Shown here piece after piece: positions 8,892 through 41,018 of a DNA stretch of 64,000 nt. The stretch's first letter is position 1. The number at the start of each line of letters is the position of its first letter. The position numbers and the translations under genes are program-made. Source of the DNA: Thermoprotei archaeon (GTDB taxonomy: Archaea; Thermoproteota; Thermoprotei; Gearchaeales; Gearchaeaceae). A model generated the notes under the pieces. It saw only the letters and a program-made list of their open reading frames with translations, was not told where the DNA came from and searched no databases. Location: NCBI GenBank assembly GCA_017857595.1, contig JAFMCU010000002.1:66881-130880 (forward strand), given 5' to 3'.

Positions 8892-9838
8892 AAGCTATAT
8901 TTACGCATAGAAAGGACTTAGACGGTATAGCTTGTGCAGCCATTTTTAAACGAGCATATAACGATGTAAAAATTTTTCTTTTGGATTATGGAGAAGAAGA
9001 AGCGTTACAAATGCTGAATCATATGGAAGAGATAGCTAAAAATGATGACAATAACTTATTTGTTATTTCAGATATCGGTATAAATAAGCCAGTAGCGAAT
9101 TTGTTGTATGAAGGTTTCAGAAAAATTATTTCTTCAACTTTAAAGATTTGCTGGTTCGATCATCATGTCTGGCCAGATGAGTTAAAAATTAAATTTAATG
9201 ATATAATAGAATTAAGTATAGAGACAGATAAATGCGCATCTGAAATAGTTGCAGATGAATTTTGTAAATCTGACGAAATATGCGAACTTCTCTCCTCAAT
9301 AGCAAGAGATTCTGATTTTAAATTGAATAAATACAAGATTACAGAATTATTGGATGATATAATAGCTTATTATAATTATACTCATGATTATGAAAAATTA
9401 AAAGATTTGGCATCTAAATTAGCACAAGGCATATTATGGGATGCAAATTCACAAAGAATTTGGGATAATTACATTTTAGAAAGGAATAAGGCAATAGAAG
9501 AACTGAAGAGAAATTATAAAAAATTATCGATAAACAGCAAAGTAGTTGCAATTTCAATTGTTAATGATATCATTCCTTCTTCTATGGCGGTAAATATTTT
9601 GTTAAAAGAAAGCAAATCTGATATAGCCATAGCTGTAAGAGAAAGAGGTACACTTACCATTATGAGGAATAAAGATTCTAATATTGAATGTAATAAAATA
9701 GCAGAATTTTTTGGGGGTGGAGGTCATCCGTTCATAGCTGGAGGTAAACTACCTAAAGATTTGGTTGAAAAACGCGATTATGATTTATGGATTAATTATA
9801 TAGCTGATATTTTAAAGAATTCCCTTAAATCTTCTTAA
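8888..9838 (+). CDS. DHH-family phosphoesterase (DHH + DHHA1-like)
   Basis: DLDGIACAAI, FDHHVWP (DHH motif) and GGGGHPFIAGG (DHHA1 GGGH motif). Confidence 0.75.
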   Translation: MKAIFTHRKDLDGIACAAIFKRAYNDVKIFLLDYGEEEALQMLNHMEEIAKNDDNNLFVISDIGINKPVANLLYEGFRKIISSTLKICWFDHHVWPDELKIKFNDIIELSIETDKCASEIVADEFCKSDEICELLSSIARDSDFKLNKYKITELLDDIIAYYNYTHDYEKLKDLASKLAQGILWDANSQRIWDNYILERNKAIEELKRNYKKLSINSKVVAISIVNDIIPSSMAVNILLKESKSDIAIAVRERGTLTIMRNKDSNIECNKIAEFFGGGGHPFIAGGKLPKDLVEKRDYDLWINYIADILKNSLKSS

Positions 9839-27268: not shown

Positions 27269-28441
27269 TTAATTGTTATAAATAAATTTCCAACTATCTA
27301 CATTATTGTACAAATCTTTTAATATGGACAATGAATGTTTTGTTTTTAAATATAAGAAAAGTTTACCTATATGCTTACAGAACTTTTTTTCATTTATCAA
27401 TTTTTGCCAATCTGCGCAATTATGTGTTATAATTTTATTTTTCATGTCTATTACTATTTTATATTTCCTAATCTCAGCTTCCAACAAGTCATTAGTAATC
27501 CTAACATTTTTGATCTCATCATTCTTTATTTCTTTAGCTCTTATCATTCGATTTTCGTTTATAAAATTAGTTAATAACAATTCTAAATCATTAAAAGATT
27601 CGTACTCAAAAAAAGTTTTTAATGTAGTTTTTTCTTTCTCAATTCTAATTTTATAATCTTCAATTTTCTTCTTCAATTTTTTTTGTTCATCGTTTATTAT
27701 ACCTAGCATTTCTAGCATTTGCAAGCAATTTTCAACTGCATAACCATGGAAATGGTTGTTAAAATATCCATAAACTACCTTTACACTTTTACTTACTTCT
27801 TGGATTTTAGGTATCCAAACATTAAGTTCTTCTGTGTTATACCTATAATTATACCAAGGCTTTTCTCCTCTTCCATGCCATCTAATATAAGCTATATCAG
27901 AAGTTACTATAACATCAGAAGGTAAAAGTGGTTCATCTACGATTGTATATGCGACATTATATTTTTCTAATAGATTGAACGTTTCATTTTTAATCCATGA
28001 TAAATCTCTAAATTCTACAGCGTACTTTATATTATAAGGTAAAATGGATAAGAATTCTTCTAAACCCTTTATATTTAATTTGAAAGTGGGCGGAAATTGA
28101 ATTAAGATGCAACTCAATTTATTCGAAGATATTAAAGGCGATAACCTCTCAACGAAACTATTTATTTTTTCGGAAATCTTTTTCACATCTAAATTTTTAG
28201 CATGCGTAATTTCTTTAGGCATCTTTGCAGTGAAAATGAATTCAATCGGTGTGTTCTTAATCCAAGAAACAACAACTTTTTCTGAAGGAAAGCTATAGAA
28301 TGTCGAATCAATCTCAACAGTTTTAAAAAATTTTGAATAGTAACGAAGAAAGCTTTTCTCTTTCAAATTATAAAAAGGGCCAATCCAATCTTTGTATAGC
28401 CAACCTGACGTTCCTAAAAAAATATTATCTAACATTTTCAT
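27269..28441 (-). CDS. DUF72-family protein fused to a coiled-coil linker and C-terminal SWIM-like zinc finger
   Basis: N-terminus FLGTSGWLYKDWIGPFY...FFKTVEIDSTFYSFP and FNNHFHGYAVENC are DUF72 hallmarks. aa 250-275 are Lys/Glu-rich. aa 340-357 HNCADWQKLINEKKFCKH give an HxC...CxH SWIM-like ligand pattern (nt about 27371-27424). Confidence 0.75.
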   Translation of the reverse strand: MKMLDNIFLGTSGWLYKDWIGPFYNLKEKSFLRYYSKFFKTVEIDSTFYSFPSEKVVVSWIKNTPIEFIFTAKMPKEITHAKNLDVKKISEKINSFVERLSPLISSNKLSCILIQFPPTFKLNIKGLEEFLSILPYNIKYAVEFRDLSWIKNETFNLLEKYNVAYTIVDEPLLPSDVIVTSDIAYIRWHGRGEKPWYNYRYNTEELNVWIPKIQEVSKSVKVVYGYFNNHFHGYAVENCLQMLEMLGIINDEQKKLKKKIEDYKIRIEKEKTTLKTFFEYESFNDLELLLTNFINENRMIRAKEIKNDEIKNVRITNDLLEAEIRKYKIVIDMKNKIITHNCADWQKLINEKKFCKHIGKLFLYLKTKHSLSILKDLYNNVDSWKFIYNN

Positions 28442-29385
28442 AATTTATTAAATATATCTAGTTCTTTAACCACTTCTAATAACTCATTTAAGTTAGAAAA
28501 ACTCATGTTTGGTAAATATTTAATAATTTCAGATACCCTTATTCTTTTTTCATCGTTGAGGTCGAAAAGCTTCCAGCCACATTTTTCAATTATTTTTTCT
28601 TTATTACAAGGAAAACTTAAATCTTCTTCTAACACGTATTTCAATGATTCGATGCCTCTATATTTAGTTACGGGGATAAATTTACCTTGTTCTTTATAAT
28701 GCTTATACCTCAGTGCATCCATATACATCTTTACTCCATGAAACGCGAATACAACCTTTTTTACACCATTGATAGAAACAACTTTTTTATCTAACGCAAT
28801 TAAATCTTCATCGGAAAATTGATAAATATTATGCTTTCCCTTTCCAAACAATCTTGAGTAAACTACATCATTCTTGACGATAGGTTTCTGATCCTTGGAT
28901 AAATCTACACAATGTACAATATTATTTTCTTGCATGAATTTGATTATTTGTTTGTTAAGAGGTGTTAAATTCTTTGAAAATTCTAAAACTATTTTAATGT
29001 TAGACAGATTTACTGATCCTATCAAATTAAAAAAATTTTGGACGAATTCACTTTCTAATTCTAAGTGTTTAGGTATATAGAAATGTAATAAATCACTTTT
29101 TAAGATATTGCATATCTTTACAATTTTTTCCAAAAGTTCTATATTTAAATTTGTATGTGCAAATTTATATTTCTCTGCGATAAGTTTATTTGCTCTTACA
29201 GAAAAATAAAAATCTTGAGGAACAGTGTTTCTCCATTTGTTTACAGTTTCAAATGAAGGTATATTATAGTAAGTAGTGTTAACTTCAACAAAATTGAATA
29301 TTTTAGAGTAATAATGCAATTTATTTCTGGACCCTACATAAAAATATGCCCAACCACCTGTTCCAATTCTATATTCTTCTGCCAA
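28438..29385 (-). CDS. Divergent DUF72-family paralogue with C-terminal DUF2795-like domain
   Basis: RIGTGGWAYFY...IFNFVEVNTTYYNIPS and FAFHGVKMYMDA parallel the DUF72 motifs of the neighbour. C-terminal LEEDLSFPCNKEKIIEKCG...IIKYLPNMSFSNLNELLEVV fits the DUF2795 pattern (FP..K..i......LP...f.s...l). 4-nt overlap with the downstream DUF72-SWIM gene. Confidence 0.6.
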   Translation of the reverse strand: MAEEYRIGTGGWAYFYVGSRNKLHYYSKIFNFVEVNTTYYNIPSFETVNKWRNTVPQDFYFSVRANKLIAEKYKFAHTNLNIELLEKIVKICNILKSDLLHFYIPKHLELESEFVQNFFNLIGSVNLSNIKIVLEFSKNLTPLNKQIIKFMQENNIVHCVDLSKDQKPIVKNDVVYSRLFGKGKHNIYQFSDEDLIALDKKVVSINGVKKVVFAFHGVKMYMDALRYKHYKEQGKFIPVTKYRGIESLKYVLEEDLSFPCNKEKIIEKCGWKLFDLNDEKRIRVSEIIKYLPNMSFSNLNELLEVVKELDIFNKL

Positions 29386-36437: not shown

Positions 36438-36654
36438 TTTTAGTATTTTATTACAAATGATCTTTGATAATCTAACGAATGAACAAATATATCTAAGTAG
36501 TTTAAATATCAAAAATAAAAAAAATTGTTGATGAAGCATAGGTATAATGTTAACTTATTTGACTTCCTCCTCAGTGAACTACTTTTAAAGTATTATTCAT
36601 TAATCGTTATATCTAAGCGGCTACCGAATATAAGGAAAATCCTTTCAGTCAAAT

Positions 36655-37704
36655 ATGAACCATAAAGCGATTACAGCTATAAACTTTATAAGCGCACTTA
36701 AGCTATCACAAATATCAAAGGAAGTTTTTTATCTTGGAATCAATGAACTTGATTCTTTAATAGGTGGTATTGAAAAAGGAAAGTTCTATCTATTCTGTGG
36801 CAATCAATTGTTTTTACGCGATTTCATTCATCGTATACTTGTAAAATTTTCAATAAAAGGTAAAATTGCATACATAAACAATACAAACTATTATTCTTCA
36901 AAGAACTTCATAGATTTTGATATCTTGGCTCTATATTCAAAGATGGAAGGTTATGAAATTACAAATTTAGCAAGAAACGTATATTTTGTAGCTGCATATA
37001 ATGAGTTAAGACAGCCTAAATCTGTTGAAGAACTTTTAAAACATATAGCTGAAGAAAAAATTAGGGTTGTTATTTTTGATGGCCTGAACAAATTCTTAGA
37101 TTCTGCGTTAAATAGGAAAGTAGCTTTCGAAAATTTGAAGCTTTCTTTTTATAAAGTTTTAAGATTTTGTATTGAAAGAAATATATCCTTAATAGTAACT
37201 TTAGAATATGAAGACTTAGAACCTCGTTTACCTCATTTTGTTTTGCACTTTTCACATGTAGCCGTATTTTTTCGTATTAAAGGCAGTAGAGTGCAGGCAT
37301 GTCTTATCAAGCATTATGCAAAAGATACAAATTATAAGACCTCAATTATCAATTTTCAGTTTCAAGAAATGGGAAGGATAACGATACCGTTTAGAGAAAA
37401 ATACCAAGCCATGTTGAATAGCTTGCAAGAAAACTTGTTACCTTTAATAAGAGATGTCGAATATAAAGAATCCTTTGAACAGCTAATTAAGGAGGTTTGG
37501 GATTACGAATACGCTGCGATGGCGAATTCAGGATTGCCTCTAGTAATAGATAACTTGAACTTAATGGCAAATTTGCATAATAAGAGTAAAATAAATTTAT
37601 TGAAAAAAATGATAGAAGAAAAAGATAAAAAAATTCACGAACTTGAAAAAAGAATAGTAAAACTCGAGGAAAAACTAAAGGAACTTACAAATGGGCACTT
37701 ATGA
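36655..37704 (+). CDS. RecA/RadA/KaiC-fold protein with degenerate Walker A and C-terminal coiled coil
   Basis: INELDSLIGGIEKGKFYLFCG matches the strand preceding the P-loop in RadA/RadB/KaiC-like ATPases. The P-loop position reads GNQLFLRD (nt 36799-36822) instead of GxxxxGK[ST]. Walker-B-like IRVVIFDG is retained. Tail is KKMIEEKDKKIHELEKRIVKLEEKLKEL. Confidence 0.55.
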   Translation: MNHKAITAINFISALKLSQISKEVFYLGINELDSLIGGIEKGKFYLFCGNQLFLRDFIHRILVKFSIKGKIAYINNTNYYSSKNFIDFDILALYSKMEGYEITNLARNVYFVAAYNELRQPKSVEELLKHIAEEKIRVVIFDGLNKFLDSALNRKVAFENLKLSFYKVLRFCIERNISLIVTLEYEDLEPRLPHFVLHFSHVAVFFRIKGSRVQACLIKHYAKDTNYKTSIINFQFQEMGRITIPFREKYQAMLNSLQENLLPLIRDVEYKESFEQLIKEVWDYEYAAMANSGLPLVIDNLNLMANLHNKSKINLLKKMIEEKDKKIHELEKRIVKLEEKLKELTNGHL

Positions 37705-39811
37705 AGGATGGCTTCTGGATGTTTATATAAAACAAAATAATACAATAATTTGGATAAAAACAATCGATGGAAAGCTAATTAGGTTAAAAGACACTTTTAT
37801 CAATTCGTTTTACATAGAGCCTAAAGATCAAGAATCATCTTTGAAATTAATTAATATACTTAATAGCATTCCTGAAATTAATTGTGTTACAAAAGTTTTC
37901 AAATTCACTTCTTTAAAGAGTAAAAGATTGTATCAGCTTTTAAAAGTTAAATTAGCTGATACACGAATTTATAGAGACCTTATAAATTCTCTTAAAAATA
38001 ATGAATATGTACGAAATCTATACAACGTAGATTTAAAATACGTTCAAAAATATCTTTTTGAAAAACTTAATGTAGAACCTACAAGTAAAGTATTGGTTGA
38101 ATGTAAGAGCGATAAACTTATAAATATTCATAAAATTGACGATGAGTATCAAATATTTCCTCCCCCTTTTTCGATAATGTTTTTCAACTTAAATTCTAAA
38201 ATATTAAAAGACAGAAATACCATTAAAAGCATTCAAGTTCTTTTTGAAAATGAAAGCTTATTGCTAGAAGGCTCAGAAGAAGAGCTTTTAGAAAATTTCA
38301 TTCAGATAGTAAATTCGAAGGATCCGGATCTGCTTTATTCTCCAAAAGCAGATAGATGTGTAAAAATTTTGGGAGAAATTGCTAAGTTGCATGGTCTAAA
38401 TTTAGAAATTGGCAGATATGGAGATCAAACAAAGGCTTATGACCAAGGTTCTTTTGGTGGTCGAATATTGCTTGGGAATACATTCTATGGATTTAACGCA
38501 AATAGGTTTGGTGTAGCAGGAATCATAGAGAGGACTAGATTTTCATTTGTGCCGATAGGTCTAGCTACGAGATGGCTGAGCAACAAAAGTATTGATTCAA
38601 GGAATTGTTATGAGCTTATTCGTAGAGGTTATGTTATACCTAAAGAAGAATACTTCGAACCTATAAGGGATCTAGCAGAGTTGACTTGGAGAGACAGAGG
38701 CGGTGTTACTTTCTCACCTGAAACTGGAAGAATTCACATGAATGTCGCGGCTATAGATTTTGATTCACAGTATCCTAGCATAATTCTTAAAAATAGGTTG
38801 AGCTATGAAGACATTAACTATTCTGATTCATTTAAATTAATGCCCTATATTATTCAGCCTTGGCTTGAAAGAAGGCTTAGGTTAAAAAAGCTTATTAAAA
38901 ATTTAAAAGGTGATGAAAAGCTTTATTGCGAGGAGAGATTGAATGCTTTAAAGCTAATTTTGGTAACATTTTATGGAATTTCGGGTTGCTGCTGGAATAG
39001 ATTTGGAAATGTGGCTACTTTTGAAGAAATTAATCGTATTTCTAGAAATATCATGTATAAAGCCAAAAAAATAGCTGAAAATAAAGGATTTAGGATAATA
39101 TATGGTGATGTTGACTCTCTATTTGTAACTAAAAAAGATGCTTCTATAGAAGATTATGAAATGCTTGTGGAATATATTAGATCGAGTATAGGCTTATCTG
39201 TTTCAATTGATAAGCATTTTAAGTTTATCGTTTTTCTACAACTCAAGAATAGTTCAATTTCTGCATTAAAAAGGTATTATGGAATAACATATGAAGGAGA
39301 TGTTGAAGCTAGGGGAATAGAATTAAGAAGAATCGACACGCCTTTGTTTATCAGGGATTTTCAAATGCAACTTATAAAGGAAATATTCAGTTTCAATAAT
39401 GTAGATGAAATATACCGATATGGCGTTTATAAAGGTATAGAGGTTGTTAAGGAGGCCTTAAGTAAACTCAATAAAAGTGATTTCTCTATAGAAAACTTAG
39501 CAATTAGTAAAAGGTTAAGAAAAAATCCAAAAGAGTATAAAGTTAATGTAGCTCATAAAATTGCTGCGTTACAATTAAAAAATTATAATAAAGAAGTAGA
39601 AGAAGGAGATTTAGTTTATTATATTTATAAGAACAATAAAGGTATTAATAGGGTCTCTGCCTACGAAACATTTAAAGGGGCATACTCACTTGAAGAGTAC
39701 ACCAGACTTTTGATCTCAAGTGCCGAAACTATTTATAGAAGCATAGGCATTAATTTACAACAGCTTATTAAAAGTTATAATAATTACAATTTAACCGCAT
39801 GGTCTATTTAA
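37691..39811 (+). CDS. Family B DNA polymerase, short form lacking recognisable 3'-5' exonuclease motifs (PolB2/Dpo2-like or divergent PolB3)
   Basis: Motif A DFDSQYPS (38756-38779), motif B-like KLILVTFYG, motif C YGDVDS (39101-39118), KRYY and GIELRRID are present. The Exo I position reads FFNLN (38180-38194) instead of FDIE, and Exo II is not recognisable. 14-nt overlap with the upstream gene. Confidence 0.85.
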   Translation: MGTYEGWLLDVYIKQNNTIIWIKTIDGKLIRLKDTFINSFYIEPKDQESSLKLINILNSIPEINCVTKVFKFTSLKSKRLYQLLKVKLADTRIYRDLINSLKNNEYVRNLYNVDLKYVQKYLFEKLNVEPTSKVLVECKSDKLINIHKIDDEYQIFPPPFSIMFFNLNSKILKDRNTIKSIQVLFENESLLLEGSEEELLENFIQIVNSKDPDLLYSPKADRCVKILGEIAKLHGLNLEIGRYGDQTKAYDQGSFGGRILLGNTFYGFNANRFGVAGIIERTRFSFVPIGLATRWLSNKSIDSRNCYELIRRGYVIPKEEYFEPIRDLAELTWRDRGGVTFSPETGRIHMNVAAIDFDSQYPSIILKNRLSYEDINYSDSFKLMPYIIQPWLERRLRLKKLIKNLKGDEKLYCEERLNALKLILVTFYGISGCCWNRFGNVATFEEINRISRNIMYKAKKIAENKGFRIIYGDVDSLFVTKKDASIEDYEMLVEYIRSSIGLSVSIDKHFKFIVFLQLKNSSISALKRYYGITYEGDVEARGIELRRIDTPLFIRDFQMQLIKEIFSFNNVDEIYRYGVYKGIEVVKEALSKLNKSDFSIENLAISKRLRKNPKEYKVNVAHKIAALQLKNYNKEVEEGDLVYYIYKNNKGINRVSAYETFKGAYSLEEYTRLLISSAETIYRSIGINLQQLIKSYNNYNLTAWSI

Positions 39812-41018
39812 TTTCTCTAGCTATAACGTCCCAAATCTTTTTTGCAATTTGATCTTTTCTCGCCTTCTCAATTTTTTCCATTTTATTATTATATGCTATT
39901 GTAACTTCATTAAAGTCACTTTCGAATCCTATATCGTTTCTAGACACATCATTGAAAATTATATAATCGACAAAATCATATTCGCTAATTATTTCTTTTA
40001 TTCTATATTCATTTAGTCCGTATTCGGCCTTAAACGCAATAACTTTTGTCTGAGGCGATATTTCCTTCACGTATCTTATGATTTTAGGCGTAGTTTCCAG
40101 TTCTAAGCTAATTTTATTTACTTTTGAAGTTTCAATTTTACCTTTGTATCTATTAGATGGTTTATAATCTGTAATTCCTGCAGCTGATACAAAGAAATCA
40201 ACATTTCTCTTAGAAAATATTTTGTTAATTTCCTTTATCATATCTTCAGATGTGACGCAATGTAATGCTTCAATCTCGTAAGGGATTTCTCCTTTTATAT
40301 CTCCAAAAAGTAATGTAACATTTGCTCCTCGAACTTTAGCTTCTAAAGCTAATGCGTTTCCCATTTTACCTGTTGAAGGATTCGTTATAAATCTTATAGC
40401 GTCAATATACTCTCTTGTAGAACCAGTCGTGATCACAACTTCTTTACCCTTTAAATCCTTTGGTGTTAATATATCCAAGACCTTATAATATACATAATCT
40501 TCAGTTGCAATTTTTGCTTTGCCTTCTTCTATACGAGGTTCAATGAAATGTACTCCCCAACTCTTTAACTTTTTTATATTCTCAATCAATATAGGATTTC
40601 TATACATTGGCTCATGCATAGCAGGAGCTATTAATAGCGGTATGCCTTTTCCTAAAGCGATTGATGCTATTAGTGTGACATTCGTATCAGATATACCATT
40701 AGCAATTTTACTAATTGTATTCGCAGTTGAAGGTGCTATTAGTATCATATCAACTCTATATCGTTCAAAAACTTTGACATGCTCAACTTCACCTGTAATC
40801 TTTGTAATAACCTTATTTCCTGTTGCATATTCCATGAGATCAGGAGAGATTAGATGAATTGCATCTTCGCTCATGACAGGTATAACATTTGCTCCATATC
40901 TTACTAAATATCTTGAAATATCAATTGCTTTATAAACAGAAACACTTCCTGTTAAGCAATGTACTATGTTTTTATCATATAAAGTATTTCCTAAACTACA
41001 TTTAATATCCGAAGACAC
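39804..41018 (-). CDS. coaBC: Bifunctional phosphopantothenoylcysteine decarboxylase / phosphopantothenate--cysteine ligase
   Basis: N-terminal flavoprotein domain (LTGSVSVYKAIDISRYL...PVMSE; APSTANTISKIANGISD) and C-terminal DFP ligase domain (ITTGSTREYIDAIRFITNPSTGKMG). Confidence 0.9.
   Translation of the reverse strand: MSSDIKCSLGNTLYDKNIVHCLTGSVSVYKAIDISRYLVRYGANVIPVMSEDAIHLISPDLMEYATGNKVITKITGEVEHVKVFERYRVDMILIAPSTANTISKIANGISDTNVTLIASIALGKGIPLLIAPAMHEPMYRNPILIENIKKLKSWGVHFIEPRIEEGKAKIATEDYVYYKVLDILTPKDLKGKEVVITTGSTREYIDAIRFITNPSTGKMGNALALEAKVRGANVTLLFGDIKGEIPYEIEALHCVTSEDMIKEINKIFSKRNVDFFVSAAGITDYKPSNRYKGKIETSKVNKISLELETTPKIIRYVKEISPQTKVIAFKAEYGLNEYRIKEIISEYDFVDYIIFNDVSRNDIGFESDFNEVTIAYNNKMEKIEKARKDQIAKKIWDVIAREIK

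Follow-up and report, generated by a model that had tools for sequence, protein, structure and literature searches.

In archaea, the family B DNA polymerase PolB2 is encoded with an inactivated RadA and a small helical protein (arCOG07300), an operon first noted by Makarova and Koonin (2013) and Makarova et al. (2014) (PMC4104785) and stated in the abstract of Makarova, Krupovic and Koonin (2014; PMC4104785). Timinskas, Timinskas and Venclovas (2025; PMC11791011) analysed 1823 such operons, named the two partners iRadA and PPB2 and modelled a PolB2–iRadA–PPB2 mutasome. Here we describe a pair of overlapping genes at positions 36,655 to 39,811 of a 64,000-nucleotide stretch of contig JAFMCU010000002.1 (Thermoprotei archaeon, assembly GCA_017857595.1), the whole of which we call the window. 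We consider it very likely that these two genes are the PolB2 mutasome operon of an uncultured hot-spring archaeon of the Thermoproteota, in a variant in which iRadA and PPB2 are fused.

In the published analysis (Timinskas et al., 2025), PPB2 is a three-helix protein of about 90-100 residues and is predicted to form a trimeric coiled-coil pillar; a conserved arm at its N-terminus, MGRT, reaches in between PolB2 and iRadA. PolB2 carries a D(K/R) motif in a flexible loop, and the β-α element preceding it mimics the oligomerisation motif of RadA/Rad51 and docks on iRadA (their section 3.3.2). Clamp-binding motifs were found on either iRadA or PolB2, and the PolB2 clade of TACK archaea nearest to the PolB3 outgroup retains the canonical DxD motif. 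Fusions of iRadA with PPB2 were also described, in which Shine-Dalgarno (SD) motifs ahead of the PPB2 part point to internal initiation.

The original prediction for this locus, made from the DNA sequence alone, had presented the pairing as undescribed and as a new functional module. That claim did not hold, as the operon stands both in the 2014 abstract of a paper that the prediction itself cited and in Timinskas et al. (2025); the pairing is already described, and the window adds a basal TACK example of a known module. Both open reading frames (ORFs), their 14-nucleotide overlap and all motif coordinates were reproduced. The features of the operon are as follows.

36655..37704, + strand: iRadA–PPB2 fusion gene (349 residues), one stop-to-stop ORF matched by hidden Markov models (HMMs) of iRadA (E = 3e-91) and PPB2 (E = 2e-36)
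36655..37362, + strand: iRadA domain, residues 1-236, a RadA/Rad51 core fold without the N-terminal helix-hairpin-helix (HhH) domain and without ATPase motifs
36799..36822, + strand: degenerate P-loop position, GNQLFLRD where GxxxxGK[ST] is expected
37369..37704, + strand: PPB2 module, residues 239-349, with the N-terminal arm MGRIT and three helices in the AlphaFold2 (AF2) model
37369-37383, + strand: MGRIT arm, with an in-frame ATG at 37369
37691..37704, + strand: overlap of 14 nucleotides between the end of the fusion gene and the start of polB2 (ATGGGCACTTATGA)
37691..39811, + strand: polB2, family B DNA polymerase of the PolB2 group (706 residues; PF00136, E = 1e-29)
38180..38194, + strand: Exo I remnant FFNLN, in which N166 and N168 replace D and E in the alignment to 5mdn
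38687..38704, + strand: WRDRGG loop with the D(K/R) motif (D335-R336, nucleotides 38693-38698)
38756-38779, + strand: motif A, DFDSQYPS
38951-38977, + strand: motif B, KLILVTFYG
39101-39118, + strand: motif C, YGDVDS
39269-39280 and 39314-39337, + strand: further polymerase motifs KRYY and GIELRRID
39788..39808, + strand: C-terminal NLTAWSI, similar to a PCNA-interacting peptide (PIP) box, resembling the xLxxW[LMI] tails of the family and archaeal PolB PIP boxes

Composition of the two proteins

Homologues of the first protein were found with E-values down to 1e-215 and those of the polymerase with E = 0, so neither ORF is a chance reading frame. A word-indexed search gave 14 relatives of the first protein, most of them with a precomputed Rad51 Pfam hit. 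Scans of the protein itself against Pfam and NCBIfam returned only sub-threshold matches (a RadA-type NCBIfam model at E = 0.005), as did comparison with PDB entry 2bke (E = 0.016), and it appears that neither Pfam nor NCBIfam holds a model for PPB2 or iRadA. An AF2 model was built on the alignment of the protein with its relatives; its predicted local distance difference test (pLDDT) score was 77 overall and mostly 80-94 over residues 21-230. Foldseek placed this model closest to Sulfolobus solfataricus RadA (2zuc/2zub, E = 5e-15, probability 1.0), with DMC1 and human RAD51 also among the matches. In phmmer, residues 18-182 aligned to residues 82-254 of S. solfataricus RadA; since RadA is matched from residue 82 onward, the window protein has no N-terminal HhH domain, and about 65 RadA residues are without counterpart.

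No Walker A motif (GxxxxGK[ST]) was present at the P-loop position in any of the 14 aligned iRadA family members, which bears out the earlier claim that this RecA-fold protein has lost its P-loop. The same prediction had described a Walker-B-like strand as kept. The strand, IRVVIFDG, is indeed there (nucleotides 37060-37083), while its Asp is retained just in the sublineage of the window, the family consensus being VVIHNL. Residual ATPase function based on this strand was rejected, both because the Asp is not conserved and because Walker A is absent.

The last residues had been taken for a Lys/Glu coiled-coil tail. This was a misreading: the helix at residues 297-347 is a Lys/Glu coiled coil, and it forms the end of a conserved three-helix module of 111 residues (239-349). 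This module is the third subunit, PPB2, joined to iRadA here and encoded as a protein of its own in other genomes. In the AF2 model a disordered hinge (residues 235-242) is followed by helices at 244-260, 268-290 and 297-347. An exhaustive search with a 340-position profile of the first protein returned three groups of matches, namely full-length proteins of about 340 residues, proteins of about 230-260 residues that span positions 5-237 only, and dozens of free-standing proteins of 90-130 residues whose residue 1 falls at position 244. An alignment of residues 239-349 of the window protein with fourteen of the small proteins showed that the latter begin MG[RI][IL][TV]P and share 31-46% identity with the module, which begins MGRITIPFRE and aligns end to end with stand-alone proteins beginning MGRITPSFRQ. 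Together, the profile groups and this alignment show that the first protein is a fusion of two proteins encoded separately elsewhere. Its product is a RadA-core domain, unable to bind ATP, joined to a PPB2 module.

The polymerase was assigned by model ranking and by pairwise alignment with sequences printed in the table of Timinskas et al. (2025). The best NCBIfam models were NF004416 (259 bits) and NF004418 (157 bits), with PolB1- and PolB3-type models far lower. The same ranking of NF004416 over NF004418 was obtained for the PolB2 of Ca. Culexmicrobium from that table (MCS7385766; DVD motif, group 1a), which was also recovered in our family as L057, and a halobacterial PolB2 from the table scored 810 bits against NF004418. 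The N-terminal/exonuclease half of the window enzyme aligned to MCS7385766 with E = 8e-53 (30% identity over 412 columns) and to Haloarcula PolB2 with E = 3e-13, and just with E = 0.05-0.5 to the solved PolB1 and PolB3 enzymes. The AF2 model of the polymerase (pLDDT 89, predicted template modelling score 0.85) superposed over its whole length on archaeal family B polymerases with a template modelling (TM) score of about 0.7.

An HMMER alignment to the Pyrobaculum calidifontis PolB (5mdn) set the Exo I residues FDIE on FFNL and the FD of Exo II on a gap beside C223. By this alignment and by column counts in the family, the Exo II Asp is absent (C223, about nucleotides 38357-38359) and the Exo III region is non-acidic (N271-R272). 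The catalytic Asp residues of the polymerase centre are kept in the alignment of 116 sequences: D356 of motif A in 116/116, D473 of motif C in 101/116 and D475 in 116/116, and the DxD of motif C in the window enzyme is canonical and intact (DVD). The loop Asp, D335, was invariant (116/116), and the next position, 336, was R in 100 and K in 14 sequences (R or K in 114/116). In the AF2 model a short strand and helix (328-334) precede D335 within a loop (321-340) of lower confidence (pLDDT about 70); following Timinskas et al. (2025), these are predicted to be the iRadA-binding β-α motif. At the C-terminus, NLTAWSI is a candidate PCNA-binding tail. Many family members end in similar xLxxW[LMI] strings, such as NARLERWL, ASLGLWMG and SNLLDWIS, and residues 698-706 of the window enzyme are disordered in the model (pLDDT <50). 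Judged by its sequence, then, the polymerase belongs to the PolB2 group and not to PolB1 or PolB3; its exonuclease is dead, while its polymerase centre is intact. The absence of the Exo acidic residues and the presence of the PolB2 hallmarks agree with the original prediction of an exonuclease-deficient PolB2/Dpo2-type enzyme.

Conservation and surroundings of the operon

For a census of the operon, one genome per GTDB species was scanned with the polymerase alignment, which gave 80 loci; with the window and four further loci (L001-L004) these made 85, and all were searched with HMMs for the iRadA part, PPB2 and PolB2. The genomes came from Nitrososphaeria, Caldarchaeales, Methanomethylicia, Bathyarchaeia, Brockarchaeota, Geothermarchaeota, Culexarchaeota and unclassified Thermoproteota. 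The loci fell into the following forms.

iRadA and PPB2 fused: 37 loci of 85
iRadA and PPB2 separate: 22 loci of 85
Divergent iRadA plus PPB2: 12 loci of 85
Contig without upstream sequence: 10 loci of 85
Upstream sequence available, partner not found: 4 loci of 85

PPB2 with a recognisable or divergent iRadA thus precedes PolB2 in 71 of the 75 loci that have upstream sequence, so that the linkage, which the original prediction had set as a test of itself, is conserved in related genomes. The order iRadA, PPB2, PolB2 was near-universal over the 85 loci, and the fusion was the commonest form in the TACK clade sampled (37/71 classifiable loci). Loci L001 (overlap at 9007-9020) and L002 (6839-6852), at 39% identity, have the same gene pair with an identical 14-nucleotide overlap. 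Gene order and the 14-nucleotide overlap are conserved over TACK lineages, and the overlap itself (ATGGGCACTTATGA) suggests translational coupling of the two genes. The nearest named genome, Crenarchaeote SCGC AAA261-N23 (unclassified Thermoproteota), has a polymerase 62% identical to that of the window, and contigs from Yellowstone hot-spring metagenomes repeat the window sequence with identical synteny (pstB–phoU, iRadA-PPB2, polB2, convergent coaBC, H+-PPase). No homologue of the first protein was found in census genomes without PolB2, and no second iRadA, separate PPB2 gene or canonical RadA was found in all 64 kb of the window.

A canonical radA gene, absent from the window, is the immediate upstream neighbor of iRadA(-PPB2)-PolB2, on the same strand, in 24-25 of the roughly 56 loci whose sequence extends far enough upstream (about 45%), and stands within 2 kb in six more. 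These genes encode HHH_5 and Rad51 domains (E about 1e-90) with an intact Walker A motif (GEYGCGKT, GEFGSGKS). Rad51/RadA is not in the top-20 neighborhood table of Timinskas et al. (2025). The adjacency suggests either that a tandem duplication of radA gave rise to iRadA, a view that such a frequent upstream neighbor fits, or that both genes share their regulation. The loci concerned are listed here by distance.

radA about 100-320 nucleotides upstream of iRadA: L015, L017, L019, L022, L025, L027, L029-L031, L034-L036, L039-L043, L046, L053, L054, L057, L069, L071, L074, L084
radA 0.5-2 kb upstream: L032, L033, L044, L045, L059, L070

Several other variants of the operon were seen in the census. 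In two loci of Ca. Methanosuratincola (L023 and L024) the fusion gene lies 4.9 kb and 1.3 kb, respectively, from polB2, an interrupted form of the operon. In three loci of Nitrososphaeria (L033, L041 and L053) the fused PPB2 copy has neither the Met nor the arm (…LMTGRNVPSF…), and a second, free PPB2 (MGRIT/LGRIT, with its own SD and start codon) stands before PolB2; these fit the duplicated-PPB2 operon group of Timinskas et al. (2025), in which just one copy retains the MGRT arm. A PolB2 subclade in metagenome-assembled genomes (MAGs) of Nitrososphaeria/Conexivisphaerales (L063-L066, L069, L071, L074, L080 and L084) is without about 80 profile positions of the exonuclease domain, its HMM matches being split at positions 160 and 245. 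Its iRadA is much more divergent (E about 1e-22, core positions 25-160 only) and still fused to PPB2, and the subclade looks like a further step in the decay of the exonuclease domain and iRadA.

Some PolB2 homologues (P0021, P0053 and P0067, 805-898 residues) contain inteins, detected as PF14890 matches, and in L050 (7290-7807) the PolB2 match is broken by about 500 nucleotides near profile position 435, close to motif B. In Nitrososphaeraceae MAGs (L049, L059, L070, L076, L078 and L079) the PolB2, iRadA or PPB2 matches run over several frames or ORFs, and these could be either pseudogenised operons of soil Nitrososphaeraceae or assembly errors. Some Nitrososphaeraceae MAGs have two PolB2 loci (e.g., L044 and L059 in CAVPXM010000013).

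The flanks of the operon in the window contain the following features.

27269-28441 and 28438-29385, − strand: tandem DUF72 genes (PF01904; E = 1e-65 and 6e-26)
36438..36654, + strand: intergenic spacer upstream of the operon, 217 nucleotides, 24.9% GC (window 30.5%)
36627-36634: TATA-like AATATAAG in the spacer, about 24 nucleotides 5' of the ATG
39804-41018, − strand: coaBC (Flavoprotein and DFP domains), convergent with polB2

The AT-rich spacer is thus present as predicted. The TATA-like AATATAAG would fit a leaderless transcript, a promoter reading that has to be set against how common such strings are in DNA of 25% GC. Downstream, the stop region of polB2 overlaps the 3' end of coaBC by 8 nucleotides (39804-39811), which leaves no space for an intergenic terminator between the two genes.

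Function, assembly and rival explanations

If the published model applies to the window, its products would assemble into one complex, in which PolB2 would dock on iRadA through the loop that mimics the RadA/Rad51 oligomerisation motif. The PPB2 trimer would form the coiled-coil pillar, with one N-terminal arm lying between PolB2 and iRadA beside the DNA, and PCNA would recruit the complex. The earlier proposal that a dead recombinase homologue serves as partner or filament mimic for the polymerase agrees with this model of motif mimicry. The complex would then carry out error-prone damage-tolerance synthesis, namely translesion synthesis and extension from primer ends that are mismatched, as genetic and biochemical work has shown for Sulfolobus Dpo2; by this analogy, a function in damage-tolerance synthesis appears likely for the window enzyme.

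Several points weigh against the assignment to a mutasome operon. According to a 2026 review the complex is as yet a prediction, even for Sulfolobus, that still has to be verified by experiment, and no PolB2 structure is found in the PDB. The 259 bits scored by the polymerase stand against an NCBIfam cut-off of 516 bits, which marks it as a divergent member. With its DxD intact, the window enzyme may exceed Sulfolobus Dpo2 in processivity or accuracy, and for such an enzyme the mutasome role is an extrapolation. Neither of the published neighborhood markers orc1/cdc6 and SRAP was found within ±5 genes in the window. DUF72, a TIM barrel related to UV-damage endonuclease, is enriched within ±5 genes of polB2 (Timinskas et al., 2025); the DUF72 pair of the window lies about 7 kb (about nine genes) upstream of the operon, and its link to it is uncertain. 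Lastly, no SD was found before the internal ATG of the window (37345-37368) or of its nearest relative, L005, though both keep the ATG and MGRIT.

The last point concerns how PPB2 is produced. Among fused relatives, 30 of 44 have an SD of at least 5 nucleotides 7-12 nucleotides before the internal ATG (GGAGG up to GGAGGTGA, often as Gly-Gly codons; for example L010 3969, L023 814, L034 4408 and L073 5652). This embedded SD independently supports, for the family, the internal initiation proposed by Timinskas et al. (2025). In the window, only 3/62 ORFs of at least 120 residues have an SD of at least 5 nucleotides within 18 nucleotides of the start, with a background of 2%. As the genes of the window hardly use SD motifs, the missing internal SD is uninformative. 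Many starts in the window directly follow AT-rich, TATA-like sequence, and the start regions suggest that this genome uses mostly leaderless or SD-independent initiation. Translation may also start inside the fusion gene, at the in-frame ATG at 37369, and the free PPB2 so produced would complete the trimer.

Alternatively, the fusion may be made in full length only, so that its PPB2 coiled coil trimerises three iRadA–PPB2 chains, as against the published 1:1:3 heteropentamer. We give this arrangement a small chance; it is raised because the lineage seldom uses SD motifs and the window is without the internal SD of most fused relatives. If true, a trimer of fusions would be a hub with three iRadA docking sites, possibly for up to three polymerases or mixed partners. 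The PolB2 complex would then be built differently, in both stoichiometry and architecture, in a clade with a canonical polymerase active site.

Could the enzyme instead be a housekeeping polymerase, replicative or active in gap-filling repair, with iRadA–PPB2 as its processivity or targeting subunit, for example at recombination intermediates? The basal PolB2 clade with DxD retained would on this view be of normal catalytic efficiency. Its polymerase motifs are all intact, the fold of the exonuclease domain is fairly complete (pLDDT about 90) and the C-terminus is PIP-like, as in replicative PolBs; the canonical radA directly upstream in 24-25 of about 56 related loci also hints at a link to homologous recombination. 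However, the proofreading residues have gone from all three Exo motifs, which is atypical of a replicative enzyme, and TACK archaea replicate with PolB1 and/or PolD (Makarova et al., 2014; PMC4104785). Dpo2 of Sulfolobus, the sole characterised member, is damage-inducible and needed for targeted mutagenesis (cited in Timinskas et al., 2025). We therefore regard a housekeeping role as improbable and prefer damage tolerance.

It is very improbable that the first gene encodes an ordinary RadA paralogue, a recombination mediator of the RadB, aRadC or Rad55 kind standing next to the polymerase by accident. Weak similarity to RadA (E = 0.005-0.016) and the precomputed Rad51 hits of most relatives would be expected of such a paralogue, but Walker A is missing family-wide, the PPB2 to which the protein is fused otherwise occurs as a free-standing operon partner of PolB2, and the adjacency to PolB2 recurs in nearly all 85 loci, across several phyla-level lineages and with the 14-nucleotide overlap conserved.

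That the pair belongs to a provirus, a casposon-like or a plasmid-derived element with its own family B polymerase is scarcely credible: archaeal mobile elements commonly carry such polymerases (PMC4104785) and the PolB2 phylogeny points to frequent horizontal transfer among TACK archaea (PMC11791011), yet integrase, Cas1 and terminal repeat are all absent nearby and the composition is like the rest of the window, and a mobile origin was rejected on the housekeeping flanks (pstSCAB-phoU upstream; coaBC, H+-PPase and rpiA downstream) and the identical synteny in independent metagenome contigs.

Significance and comparison with known systems

As a discovery the PolB2 mutasome operon of the window carries little weight, the module having been predicted in 2013-2014 and computationally dissected in 2025. 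It is a clean, annotatable example of the basal TACK form, with DxD intact, iRadA and PPB2 fused and a PIP-like polymerase tail. This basal form may be the best target for an experimental test of the predicted mutasome complex, because co-expression would take no more than two polypeptides and full activity of the polymerase is expected. The census further shows that fusions dominate in the sampled clade and that canonical radA is a frequent immediate upstream neighbor.

With the canonical archaeal RadA, RadB and aRadC, the window iRadA shares the RecA/Rad51 core fold, at a Foldseek E of about 1e-14. It differs from them in having no Walker A, no HhH domain and no conserved Walker B, in its fusion to PPB2 and in its dedication to a polymerase gene. 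Likewise, the window polymerase resembles the replicative PolB3 and PolB1 enzymes (P. calidifontis 5mdn, KOD 4k8z and Sso Dpo1 1s5j) in its overall family B fold, with TM about 0.7, and in having motifs A, B and C, while it is without the catalytic residues of Exo I-III, is about 60-150 residues shorter and has in addition the PolB2-specific D-[RK]-G-G loop and the partner genes.

The Escherichia coli Pol V mutasome (UmuD'2C–RecA–ATP) offers an analogy, in that a translesion polymerase, one protomer of the RecA family and a small oligomeric accessory protein are recruited by the clamp. The catalytic subunit of Pol V is of the Y family, however, its RecA is the active recombinase, taken from a filament with ATP, and UmuD' is unrelated to PPB2, so that homology is limited to RecA/RadA.

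Dpo2 of Sulfolobus/Saccharolobus is the sole experimentally characterised member of the same polymerase group, with an inactive exonuclease and encoded with iRadA and PPB2. Being damage-inducible, capable of mismatch and lesion extension, and required for targeted mutagenesis, Dpo2 is presumed to be the functional model. In Sulfolobales the order is PPB2–PolB2–iRadA with separate genes (group 3a), whereas in the window fused iRadA-PPB2 is followed by polB2. The first Asp of DxD is replaced in Dpo2 (IID), and its exonuclease domain is more decayed and the protein as a whole shorter; the window enzyme has DVD and a fuller exonuclease-domain fold.

From the PolB2–iRadA–PPB2 mutasome operon as published, the window shows no categorical difference, only being without an internal SD and without an orc1/cdc6 or SRAP neighbor. 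Fusions are a small minority in the NCBI-based set of Timinskas et al. (2025), where group 1b, which we take to be the fusion, makes up 57/1823 operons; in the TACK clade sampled here no other form is as common. The window has all three components, arranged as iRadA, PPB2, PolB2. As in the published operon, iRadA has neither HhH domain nor ATPase residues, PPB2 consists of three helices preceded by the MGR[IV]T arm, the iRadA-PPB2 fusion retains its internal Met, and PolB2 combines a dead exonuclease and the D(K/R) loop with a DxD motif like that of the TACK clade near the PolB2 root.

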